The notes under the pieces were generated by a model. It saw nothing but the letters and a program-made list of their open reading frames with translations. It was not told the origin of the DNA and did no database searches. From Escherichia phage vB_EcoS Sa179lw, in sequence record NC_054637.1: 46,833 nt of DNA; one strand, written 5' to 3'. The translations under genes and the position numbers were made by a program. Below are positions 1 to 46,833 of this stretch, one piece after another (the first letter of the stretch is position 1; every line of letters begins with the position of its first letter).

Positions 1-127
1 ATTAACAACGCAGGCTTAAAGGTAAAAAAATGATTATCCAGTTAAACGACATCATGAAAGCAGACATTATTCAGCTTGAAGATTATGACATGCAGCTGGC
101 GTTTGAAATTGAAACCGTTGAGCGGCA
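1..127. repeat. Terminal duplication: bases 1-127 are identical to 46707-46833 (circular closure or assembly overlap); genome unit 46706 bp
   Basis: Direct comparison of the two window ends. Confidence 0.9.
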
Positions 128-356
128 ATTGCAATATGCTGATAAGAAGAATGATCGCGTATGGCATGAGAAGGCACTTAAGGCGCGCGACCACATGAAG
201 CGCACGCGAGCACTCATCAAAACGCGGCTTGATAAGCTGTATTACGGAGAGGAAAGGATGTTGCATGGCGCAATTCTGGCTCAAATCCGTAAGGAAATGC
301 CCATTGGCAAGTTTATGTCATACGTTCACCGAGCAAGGCAGGAGGCGGGGTTATGA
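30..356 (+). CDS. Hypothetical protein, 108 aa
   Basis: ORF track; ATGA stop/start overlap with the preceding gene (46335-46739 in the duplicated copy). Confidence 0.55.
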   Translation: MIIQLNDIMKADIIQLEDYDMQLAFEIETVERQLQYADKKNDRVWHEKALKARDHMKRTRALIKTRLDKLYYGEERMLHGAILAQIRKEMPIGKFMSYVHRARQEAGL

Positions 357-499
357 TTCCGTTGCTGTGGATATTATCAGCTTACGCATTCGCAAGGGTA
401 TTTGAGGCTGACACTCTGTACCAGATGATTTGCTATGGCGCTCTGTTCTGCCTTTCAGGCGCTGCTCTTGCATTTATGGATGATGTAATTTCAGACTAA
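353..499 (+). CDS. Small hydrophobic protein, 48 aa
   Basis: ATG overlaps the upstream stop (TTATGA); hydrophobic translation MIPLLWILSAYAF... Confidence 0.35.
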   Translation: MIPLLWILSAYAFARVFEADTLYQMICYGALFCLSGAALAFMDDVISD

Positions 500-639
500 C
501 ACCGTATATCTTTTGTTCATCATGGGCTGCTATCATTTAATCAGGAGGTAGCCCATGAACATAATCCCTATCACTTACTTTCTCACGCTCTACGCGCTCA
601 CTGATTCGCCATTGTTTGCACTGGCTACCGCCTCATGGT

Positions 640-665
640 GTTATATCTCCCTGTGTTATAATTCG
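640..665 (+). promoter_or_regulatory. Candidate extended -10 promoter (TGTTATAAT) upstream of the scaffold-like gene
   Basis: TGT+TATAAT at 654-662; weak -35. Confidence 0.3.
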
Positions 666-693
666 ACCACAAACTAACCGTGGAGAGTTAACC

Positions 694-2106
694 ATGATTG
701 TCAAGATTGGCGATAAGTGGGTGGTCAAGTCGAAAGACGGCTCACAGCAATTTGGCGAATACGACACAGAAGAAGCAGCCAAAAAACGCCTTGCAGAAGT
801 GGAAGCGTTTAAGCATATGAATAATAAATTGCAGGTTAACGTCCTGACAACCATCAATTCAGCCAGCAATATCAGTGAGCAAATCATTGATGGCGACCCG
901 CACTACGTGATTAAAAACGTCGTGCCAGTAGTTGATGATGTCGTGATGAACAATGGCCTGTATCCGGGCGAGGAAATCCGCAAGAGCTATCACGGCCTTG
1001 ATGGTAAGCCCGCACCATACAACCACCCAATGATTGATGGTAAATACGTCTCCGCAAGCATGACTCGTGCCGCTAACCAGTTCAGCGTTGGCGCATGGAT
1101 TGAAAACTCATCTCATGACGGCAGCAAGGCGCTGGTAGACCTGAAGGTTAATAAAGTCATCGCTGAACGTTCGGAGAAAGGTCAGGAACTGCTCGGTCGC
1201 ATTGAGGCGCTGATGAACTCCGCAGACGGCGCTGAGCCAATCCACGTATCAACTGGCTTATTGCTCAACCGCGAAGCTGCGGAAGGTACAAGCAAAGGTA
1301 AAAAATACTCATGGATTGCACGCAACATGGAGTGGGACCATCTCGCCATCCTGCCGCCGGGAGTGCCTGGAGCCGGGACGCCAGAAGATGGCGTGGGAAT
1401 CTTTGCCACCAATGGAGAGCAAATCGAGCGCATCACTGTAAACCTTGAGGATTCAACCGTGCCAGACGAAAGCGCCAACAAGATTAATTATAAATCGTGG
1501 CTGCATAAAGCCATCAACTACATCACCAACAAATCAGACCTTTCGTTTGAGAATATCAGTGAGCAGATTCGCCAGATTCTGAAGGCGGAAGTTGGCGAGG
1601 ATGTCTGGCCTTATATCGTGGCTGTGTACGACGATCGCGTCGGGTTCGAAATCAAAGGCCAGATTTTTCAGCAGTTCTACATCGTTGAAGATGATGTGGT
1701 AAAATTGGTCGGTGAGCGGGTCAAGGCTGTTTATAAAACTGAGCTTGAGCCGGTAAAATCAACTGAAGGGGAAATCTCAATGACTAACGAGGAATTACAG
1801 GCGGTACTAGCCGATGCCCTCAAGCCGGTTCAGGAATCGTTGACAGCTGTCAACCAGAAGCTGACCGACATCGAAGCTGAAAACGTTAAGCTGAAAGAGC
1901 AATTGCAGGCGAATACCGAGCAGGAAGAAACCGCGATGCGTGCTGCTATCATCGCTGAACTGAAACTGCCGGAATCCGCTGTGAATGCGCTGAAAGGTGA
2001 AGCACTGCGTGAAACCTATGCGCTGACCAGTAAACCTGCCGCGCTGAAGGGTGGCTTCCAGCCGAACCACGCTGATGACGATTTTGATATGGAGGCACCT
2101 GAATAA
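694..2106 (+). CDS. Putative capsid scaffolding / prohead maturation protein, 470 aa
   Basis: Sits immediately upstream of the decoration-like and major capsid genes; C-terminal region rich in E/K/Q/L heptad-like stretches; RBS GGAGAG before ATG 694. Confidence 0.5.
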
Positions 2107-44983: not shown

Positions 44984-45178
44984 ATGGCGAATGACGAGCT
45001 GTACGAAAAATCGTTAATCCAGCGACTGAATGAAGTCGAAAGCACTCGCGAATGGCTGGAGCGTGAATTGCGTGAAGTGCGAAACCGCCTGCAACGCAAG
45101 CGTAGTCAGCAGAAAGACATTATTGACTGGTCCGGCGATAAGCCTAAGTTTAATAATATTGGGGAGTGGACGAAGTGA
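44984..45178 (+). CDS. Hypothetical coiled-coil protein, 64 aa
   Basis: ORF track; E/R/L-rich. Confidence 0.45.
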   Translation: MANDELYEKSLIQRLNEVESTREWLERELREVRNRLQRKRSQQKDIIDWSGDKPKFNNIGEWTK

Positions 45179-45489
45179 ATGATTTAAGCGTTGGCGACAA
45201 AGTTGTCATTAGAAATAGATATGGAGTAACCATCTCAAGAATCGTTCGTGAAACGGCTAAGCAATGGATTGTAGAAGGTACAGAGAACGGCAGCGTAAGG
45301 AGATTCAGAAAATCAGACCTTATTGAGATTGGTTGCGATGTGTGGCACATAGTTAGCATATCAAAATGCACTGACGACATAGAGAATGAGATTCGCAAAA
45401 AACAAATAGTCAGGATGATTGAGGTTAAGGGTGACTTAAGCAAGCTACCACTTACTGAGTTAGTTTCTTTATGGGAGAAAGTTAAATGA
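45166..45489 (+). CDS. Hypothetical protein, 107 aa (GTG start)
   Basis: ORF track; overlaps neighbours. Confidence 0.45.
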   Translation: MDEVNDLSVGDKVVIRNRYGVTISRIVRETAKQWIVEGTENGSVRRFRKSDLIEIGCDVWHIVSISKCTDDIENEIRKKQIVRMIEVKGDLSKLPLTELVSLWEKVK

Positions 45490-45731
45490 CAGCACCACAT
45501 ATGCCGATGATGAATGATGAAGGCTTGCTGGAGTGCCCATTCTGCAACAGCCATGAAATCAAGTTATATAACGACGATGGGATGTATTTCGCCATGTGCG
45601 AGTGCGGCTGCTCAAGTGATGTTCACATAACGAAGTTGGCGGCCGCCACCCAATGGAACACTCGCAACGGACGCCTCTACACCGCTGACGATTTCAATCA
45701 GACAGCTGAGGAGCGCGAACATGGACTATAA
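45486..45731 (+). CDS. lar: Lar-family-like restriction alleviation protein (Cys-rich), 81 aa
   Basis: LLECPFCNSHEI ... MCECGCSSDVH ... ATQWNTRNG matches the recalled Lar-family pattern (CPFCG ... second Cys pair ... AWNRR). Confidence 0.55.
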   Translation: MTAPHMPMMNDEGLLECPFCNSHEIKLYNDDGMYFAMCECGCSSDVHITKLAAATQWNTRNGRLYTADDFNQTAEEREHGL

Positions 45732-46209
45732 ATCACAAATCATGCGCGTGATTATCAATCATCCAGGCGCAACTCGCGCATACATTGAGAAGCATTGCGG
45801 AGGAAAGCATTCAAGCACCACAACGCATCGTTTGCATGAGATGCTTGCGCTTGGCTTTATTCGCCGTGAGAAGTCAGTGATTCGTGGTGGCAAGTGGCAG
45901 TACAAGTATTTCATCTCTGATGATGCTGCTGGCATTGATGATGCTATCAGGTGTCACTTGCTGGGCAATGCTGGCTCAGAGGTGAAAGAAATTAGTGCCG
46001 CCACTGGCATTGACTACCGAATCGTGAAAAGCCGCATCCGCATCATGTTCCATAACAGCGATGTTACGCGAAGCTATGACCACCACAAGAAGCTGTGGCG
46101 TTACTCATGGCAGGAGCGGGAAGTAAATGTGAGCAACCTGTTTAATTCACTTCTTCGCAATGCAAGGAGTCATCATGGGGAAAGCCAAGCGCAAGAAACA
46201 AGAGTATGA
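45721..46209 (+). CDS. Putative winged-helix DNA-binding protein, 162 aa
   Basis: wHTH-like segment THRLHEMLALGFIRRE; function tentative. Confidence 0.4.
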   Translation: MDYKSQIMRVIINHPGATRAYIEKHCGGKHSSTTTHRLHEMLALGFIRREKSVIRGGKWQYKYFISDDAAGIDDAIRCHLLGNAGSEVKEISAATGIDYRIVKSRIRIMFHNSDVTRSYDHHKKLWRYSWQEREVNVSNLFNSLLRNARSHHGESQAQETRV

Positions 46210-46351
46210 ACCGCTACCGCCATACGAAATATCAGGCATGCCTCAGCAGGAGGATGTGATTCTCACCGAAGCTGAATGGCGCAAAGTGGCAAGAGTGCAA
46301 ATCATGTTCCGCAAACTTGCCGAGGATGTACTAAATGAGATGGGCTATTAA
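46175..46351 (+). CDS. Hypothetical protein, about 58 aa
   Basis: ATG at 46175 five nt after AAGGAG. Confidence 0.4.
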   Translation: MGKAKRKKQEYEPLPPYEISGMPQQEDVILTEAEWRKVARVQIMFRKLAEDVLNEMGY

Positions 46352-46739
46352 GCATAAATCCGGCAGAACTCTGTTTGTGACATCAGATGAGTTTATTGCC
46401 AATAACCGTAGAAAGATGGGCTGGATAGTGGAGGAAGTGAAGATGACGAGTAGAGAGCGGTTTGAAGAAGAAATGAGCGATAAATATGAGTGGTTCAGTG
46501 ATGCGATCGCTTGTGCTGATTTTTGCGGTGACGATGATGATGGCTACTATGTTGGCGGTGATTATCTCTATTATGGAACTTCATGTTCAGAGGCTTTGTT
46601 CTGGTTATGGCGAGGATGGCAGGCATCGCGAGCGGCTATTCAGATTCAGGCATGCCCATACCCAAACAACCACGGACCACATGTTGATGACTATTACCTC
46701 GACCAAATTAACAACGCAGGCTTAAAGGTAAAAAAATGA
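46335..46739 (+). CDS. Hypothetical protein, 134 aa, with acidic Cys-containing segment
   Basis: ORF track; coupled (ATGA) to the gene at 30-356 via the duplicated end. Confidence 0.5.
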   Translation: MRWAIKHKSGRTLFVTSDEFIANNRRKMGWIVEEVKMTSRERFEEEMSDKYEWFSDAIACADFCGDDDDGYYVGGDYLYYGTSCSEALFWLWRGWQASRAAIQIQACPYPNNHGPHVDDYYLDQINNAGLKVKK

Positions 46740-46833
46740 TTATCCAGTTAAACGACATCATGAAAGCAGACATTATTCAGCTTGAAGATTATGACATGCA
46801 GCTGGCGTTTGAAATTGAAACCGTTGAGCGGCA
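46707..46833. repeat. Second copy of the 127-bp terminal duplication
   Basis: Identical to bases 1-127. Confidence 0.9.

Follow-up and report, generated by a model that had tools for sequence, protein, structure and literature searches.

Escherichia phage vB_EcoS Sa179lw is represented by the sequence record NC_054637.1, a stretch of 46,833 bases that is called the window here and that begins and ends with the same 127 bases. Very probably, this record consists of one complete genome of 46,706 bp followed by an overlap that the assembler left behind, with headful packaging of the virion DNA as part of the same overall explanation. The identical ends themselves are almost certainly the product of an assembly program closing a circle and not a biological element. 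The record can therefore be used as a complete genome, provided that one copy of the 127 bases is trimmed before gene calling, size statistics and similarity calculations. End overlaps of this kind are already known and the present case leaves the current understanding unchanged; its main value is one of bookkeeping on the record.

The duplicated ends of the record

The longest prefix of the window that equals a suffix measures exactly 127 bases, positions 1-127 being the same as 46707-46833 with 0 mismatches (127/127), and the chance of an exact match between two 127-mers is about 4^-127. A repeat search of the whole window found no second long repeat, the next direct repeat being one of 52 nt at 71% identity. 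The equality of the two ends, reported in a preliminary description of this DNA, is thus confirmed to the base.

Both copies lie in coding sequence. The left copy (1..127) consists of the last 33 bases of a gene at 46335..46739 and of the first 98 bases of a gene at 30..356, and the right copy (46707..46833) is the redundant one, to be removed in order to obtain the 46,706-bp unit. The first of these genes, on the + strand, encodes a protein of 134 amino acids (aa) whose function is not known; it crosses the start of the right copy (46706/46707), is cut by the window start 33 bases before its end and terminates with a TGA stop at 46737-46739. The second, also on the + strand and also of a function not known, encodes 108 aa from an ATG at 30-32 (equal to 46736-46738), and a second copy of its first 98 bases lies at 46736-46833. 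The two genes share an ATGA (30-33 / 46736-46739) that holds the stop of the former and the start of the latter, as expected from the earlier observation that the genes of the right end run into the left end through such an overlap. Sequence comparison indicates that both open reading frames (ORFs) are real genes, because the 134-aa protein matches PHROG 343 (E = 4e-31) and the 108-aa protein is 95% identical to gp43 of Shigella phage Sf11. The 134-aa protein also shows 46% identity to the region 30581-30231 of Sf11.

The proposed origin of the overlap is a simple one. A contig of a de Bruijn graph would have closed on itself, and the assembler would have made one turn of the circular path, printing the last stretch of k-mer length, here 127 bases, twice. 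The start of the contig would be arbitrary and happens to fall inside a gene. Once one copy is trimmed, what remains would be the complete 46,706-bp genome of a small siphovirus of virulent type belonging to a Skatevirus-like cluster. The largest k permitted by SPAdes is 127, and we infer with strong confidence that the Sa179lw record was assembled with k = 127 by SPAdes or a related program. Repeats of 127 bp at the start and end of circular phage contigs from SPAdes have been described as equal to the k-mer size and were trimmed (PMC7372960); a second study likewise ascribed a 127-bp overlap on circular phage contigs to the SPAdes k-mer size and trimmed it (PMC12007190), and an equivalent overlap of 77 bp has been reported in a third (PMC9409062). 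The ends of the window agree with these k-mer overlaps in being exactly identical over the length reported as the assembler k (127) and in starting at an arbitrary position within a gene, and no sequence difference sets them apart. The contig ends of this record should not be read as biological termini.

Joined with a single copy of the 127 bases, the sequence is biologically continuous and displays no terminus-like feature at the join. To compare this join with other phages, a junction query composed of the last 1000 and the first 1000 bases of the 46,706-bp unit was searched against isolate genomes. It matches 150 isolate records, and 34 of these phage records cover at least 80% of it. In Escherichia coli phage ChristineMuster_Bas80 (Bas80), positions 2 to 1356 of the query align at 91.2% identity with 0 gaps, in an alignment that crosses the join (1000/1001) as well as the inner repeat edge (1127/1128). 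The corresponding genes, Bas80_0031 (405 nt) and Bas80_0032 (327 nt), have the same lengths as those of the window and the same 4-nt overlap. An independent genome therefore contains a single copy of this stretch, located inside an operon. In Sf11, likewise, the two ends of the window fall at adjacent positions (30231/30231). A scan of a viral contig collection with an exact-flank pattern (20 nt + 127 N + 20 nt) returned no exact match, because the relatives differ by about 10% and the test was too strict. The length of the overlap, its position in coding sequence, the read-through in Bas80 and the collinearity with Sf11 all agree with the circularly closed 46,706-bp assembly that the preliminary description had proposed.

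A separate observation concerns the ATGA itself, which coincides with a mosaic boundary inside the overlap. The gene upstream of it shares 46% and the gene downstream 95% protein identity with Sf11; Bas80 is about 91% identical at the nucleotide level across both.

Packaging type and competing explanations of the ends

The terminase genes make headful packaging likely, and with it virion molecules that are circularly permuted and terminally redundant. Permuted and redundant DNA would explain the circular closure of the assembly and would leave no unique ends to place. The preliminary description held that the physical ends, cos or pac, cannot be placed from the sequence: this stands for their exact positions, but the type of packaging is predictable from the terminase.

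The packaging module comprises a small terminase of 153 aa (33596..34057, +), recognized by PHROG 309 ('terminase small subunit', E = 1.4e-60) with no Pfam match, and a large terminase of 435 aa (34032..35339, +) carrying the Pfam domains Terminase_6N and Terminase_6C. At E <= 0.01, the Pfam scan of the large terminase returned only these two domains and a weak Terminase_3. The portal protein of 470 aa (37703..39115, +) matches Phage_portal_3 (Pfam, E = 1e-20) and PHROG 146 (E = 5.9e-109) and is 71% identical to the portal of Sf11. In headful packaging, the portal acts as the sensor of head filling.

Reference large terminases were scanned with the same Pfam library as the protein of the window. 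The Terminase_6N + Terminase_6C architecture of the window was found in gp2 of P22, a headful phage with a pac site. The other headful pac enzymes, G2P of SPP1 and gp2 of Sf6, carry Terminase_3 + Terminase_3C. The cos enzymes are built differently, with GpA_ATPase + GpA_nuclease in lambda A and TerL_ATPase + TerL_nuclease in HK97 gp2, and gp19 of T7, which produces terminal repeats, has an RNaseH-like domain of its own (Terminase-T7_RNaseH-like). The large terminase of the window shares 98.9% identity with its counterpart in Salmonella phage NX263. Across 99% of its length it is also about 61% identical to the terminases of Jerseyvirus (SETP3, Kenya-K6, Kenya-K55), a group with an experimentally typed member. 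Headful pac packaging was reported for the Jerseyvirus group (major type MT1) on the evidence of phage K47, by PhageTerm, pulsed-field gels and restriction profiles (PMC10783031). Headful packaging is predicted for the phage of the window because of this roughly 61% identity combined with the P22-type Terminase_6N and Terminase_6C architecture. Two members of its cluster that possess a different terminase, KlebP_265 (PMC11769527) and STGO-35-1 (according to a published report), have been described as headful or fully permuted too.

The resemblance to each of these systems is partial. With Jerseyvirus (SETP3, Kenya-K6), the likeness extends over the full length of the large terminase and to a small terminase gene placed directly upstream, whereas the rest of the genome is not that of a Jerseyvirus and only the packaging module is common. 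Headful packaging was shown for K47; for the phage of the window, whose closest terminase relatives are NX263 and Akira, it is predicted. With gp2 and gp3 of P22, the window shares the Pfam architecture of the large terminase and the order of small then large terminase gene with the portal downstream. It differs in that about 2.4 kb separate the portal from the terminase genes (35339 to 37703), in that there is no significant pairwise similarity and in that the small terminase is unrelated at the Pfam level.

By this mechanism, the pair of small and large terminases would begin its work on concatemers, probably from a pac site within or close to the small terminase gene, and the terminase would cut when the head is full, yielding redundant, permuted molecules without unique ends. 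In the P22 record, the pac site is annotated inside the small terminase gene, and a counterpart was not found in positions 33000-34400 of the window. If there is a pac site, it would, judging from P22, most likely lie in or near the small terminase gene (33.6-34.1 kb). To our knowledge, pac sites have no general consensus. No reports on the termini of NX263, Akira or Sf11 were found in the literature searched, and the papers naming phage Akira give no termini for it.

Several points weigh against headful packaging. A circular assembly alone fits headful, cos or repeat-ended genomes alike, and genes spanned the contig ends of two cos phages as well (PMC9409062). The headful assignment is a prediction drawn from 61% identity to a typed relative and from domain architecture. 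A repeat search of 33000-34400 gave only short, weak matches and no convincing pac-like motif, and pairwise comparison of the large terminase with those of P22, Sf6, SPP1, lambda, HK97 and T7 yielded nothing significant. It is because these six references did not discriminate that the packaging type was read from the domain architecture and the nearest typed relative. A sequence search of the large terminase against solved structures gave no match either. An ORF of 496 aa at 616-2106 was considered as a candidate large terminase and rejected, being a homologue of Sf11 gp41, a head-region protein.

Two of these points lend some credit to an improbable alternative, in which the overlap is artefactual and the genome complete but packaging is of the cos type, the cohesive ends lying elsewhere and ligated ends or concatemers having been sequenced. 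Circular closure with genes across the contig ends is compatible with it, as is the fact that no pac site was located. The large terminase, however, has no match to the GpA domains of lambda or to the TerL_ATPase/TerL_nuclease domains of HK97 at E <= 0.01, having Terminase_6N/6C instead, and its nearest typed relatives are headful. Moreover, the ORF directly upstream of the large terminase gene encodes a small terminase and not an HNH endonuclease, the enzyme that accompanies cos terminases of the HK97 type.

It is very improbable that the circle is false, a 127-mer common to two co-occurring related phages having joined them into a chimera that no single virus possesses. The mosaic nature of the genome in comparison with any one relative could be taken in this sense: the terminase module is like that of Akira and NX263 and not that of Sf11, the C-terminal part of the tailspike matches E. 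coli phage ST20, and the genes to the left and right of the junction differ in their identity to Sf11 (46% and 95%). Mosaicism that includes terminase exchange is nevertheless documented in isolates of this cluster (PMC11769527). In addition, the circle has a complete, collinear gene order in which no module is duplicated or missing, its size is usual for the cluster, and a single ungapped alignment shows Bas80 to be about 91% identical to either side of the junction.

Scarcely credible is a true direct terminal repeat of 127 bp on a unique linear virion DNA of 46,833 bp starting at base 1, as in T7-type phages: a short terminal repeat would likewise show up in the sequence as two identical ends, but this one is not outside genes, starting 33 bases before the end of the 134-codon gene and spanning the ATGA overlap, its length is that of the SPAdes k-mer overlap described for phage contigs (PMC7372960, PMC12007190), relatives read through with a single copy and identical gene lengths, the large terminase has P22-type architecture with Terminase_6C instead of the T7-type nuclease domain Terminase-T7_RNaseH-like, and typed relatives of the terminase package by headful. 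We would give hardly any weight to the idea of a genuine short terminal repeat of 127 bases inside coding sequence whose match to the SPAdes k is coincidental; if true, the phage would combine repeat ends and a P22-type terminase in a cluster whose other reported members are headful.

Relatives and mosaic composition of the genome

Similarity searches with the window retrieved hundreds of related records. The closest are Shigella phage Sf11 (Cedarrivervirus), E. coli phages C1, S192 and Bas79 and Salmonella phage seszw, with about 90% nucleotide identity; the matches cover between two thirds and three quarters of the first 25 kb and a smaller share of the rest. The small siphoviruses of this group have been treated as a cluster of over-split genera around Skatevirus (PMC11769527; PMC11990801). 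The phage belongs to this Skatevirus-like cluster by the protein matches of its capsid, tail, helicase, primase, lysis and portal genes, which are collinear with those of Sf11, and its size falls inside the 44.6-48.6 kb range of its relatives.

When the proteins encoded by its ORFs are mapped on Sf11, the genome follows the Sf11 circle once round, collinearly and in reverse orientation, with positions 30-30214 of the window corresponding to Sf11 30231 down to 260 and 30761-46739 to Sf11 45808 down to 30231. No module that would be expected is missing. The head and packaging genes include those for the small and large terminases, the portal, a Mu F-like head protein, the decoration protein and the major capsid protein; the tail genes include those for the tape measure, a J-like protein and the tailspike. 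For replication, there are genes for a helicase, SSB, Gam-like and Sak4-like proteins and a primase/polymerase, and a lysis cassette is also present. The gene order and the size class are shared with Sf11 and other members of the Skatevirus-like cluster (E. coli C1 and Bas77-81; Salmonella Akira, LPST10, KFS-SE2 and Vi II-E1), with about 90% nucleotide identity over roughly 73% of the genome. The window differs from Sf11 in the receptor-binding part of the tailspike, in the tape measure and in having no tRNA genes where Sf11 has two.

Under the ICTV rule, members of a genus are 70% or more similar in nucleotide sequence across the entire genome. A VIRIDIC-like, one-directional blastn comparison with Sf11 aligned 73% of the genome and gave an identity-weighted similarity of 64%, which lies below this threshold for Cedarrivervirus. 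As about 64% similarity to Sf11 implies a different species and falls under the usual 70% genus line, the phage is probably a new species distinct from Sf11. With it, one species is added to a well-sampled and highly mosaic cluster of enterobacterial siphoviruses.

In the viral contig collection, the nearest match is IMGVR_UViG_3300045988_007579, whose terminase protein is 97% identical to that of the window. About 66% of the 21 kb available for this contig aligns, at roughly 79-93% nucleotide identity, and this partial alignment led us to reject it as the same phage.

In comparison with Sf11, the packaging module (33400-37700) is a non-orthologous replacement: the large terminase has Terminase_6N + 6C here and Terminase_3 + 3C in Sf11, with no significant pairwise similarity between the two. 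The module of the window is common to Salmonella phages NX263, Akira and BUCT_XGG_PSM_3377 and to the viral contig mentioned above. This replacement agrees with the terminase exchange reported for the cluster (PMC11769527), of which the window offers one further example. Large terminases 47-50% identical to that of the window are also encoded by many viral contigs of 30-58 kb with IMG isolate-genome identifiers (loci L009, L014 and L026-L083), and this terminase lineage may be common in prophages as well.

Other genes and sequence elements

The tailspike gene (19751-22297, +) encodes a chimeric protein of 848 aa. The first 130 aa show 79% identity to Sf11 gp13, and the remainder (residues 131-848) has 90.9% identity with a protein from E. 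coli phage ST20, whose host is E. coli O165:H8; the only other matches of this second part are to tail fibres of Vibrio phages, at about 33%. The composition of the tailspike suggests that the host is an E. coli bearing a particular O-antigen. The tape measure gene (12968-15910, +) encodes 980 aa compared with about 780 aa in Sf11, and only the central part of the protein aligns, at 49% identity. Such a difference would imply a longer tail or a swapped segment of the tape measure.

A search for tRNA genes across the window found none. In Sf11, a tRNA-Ser and a tRNA-Arg are located between the head-tail genes and the major tail gene, and the equivalent part of the window (9700-10250) matches Sf11 in fragments only.

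A conserved promoter-like element, TTGAC(G/A)-N17-TAGATT or TATAGT, recurs in intergenic gaps, mostly where transcription switches strand. Its sites are 7267-7278(-), 30793-30821(+), 35787-35798(-), 41572-41583(-) and 44686-44697(+), and also 12172-12213(-). With at most one mismatch, TTGACGTAGATT occurs six times in the window against 0.19 expected. These elements are probably the sigma-70 promoters of the phage, which have their spacer in common.

A gap of about 550 bp (30215-30760), non-coding and A+T-rich, separates the leftward replication genes from the rightward early genes and coincides with the minimum of the cumulative GC skew. All four copies of GGCAAATAG in the window are found in this gap (30366-30564), against 0.41 expected, together with a tandem pair of TTGCCAGCTAT and A-rich repeats of AAATAGAAA. 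The gap is a candidate origin or early control region, and it is at the equivalent place that the linear record of Sf11 opens.

Three near-identical GC hairpins, each flanked by an A run and a T run (AAAAGCCCCGTAAAGGGGCTTTT), are present at 4778-4809, 10973-11004 and 43193-43224. They come after the blocks of capsid, major tail and lysis genes and look like bidirectional intrinsic terminators.

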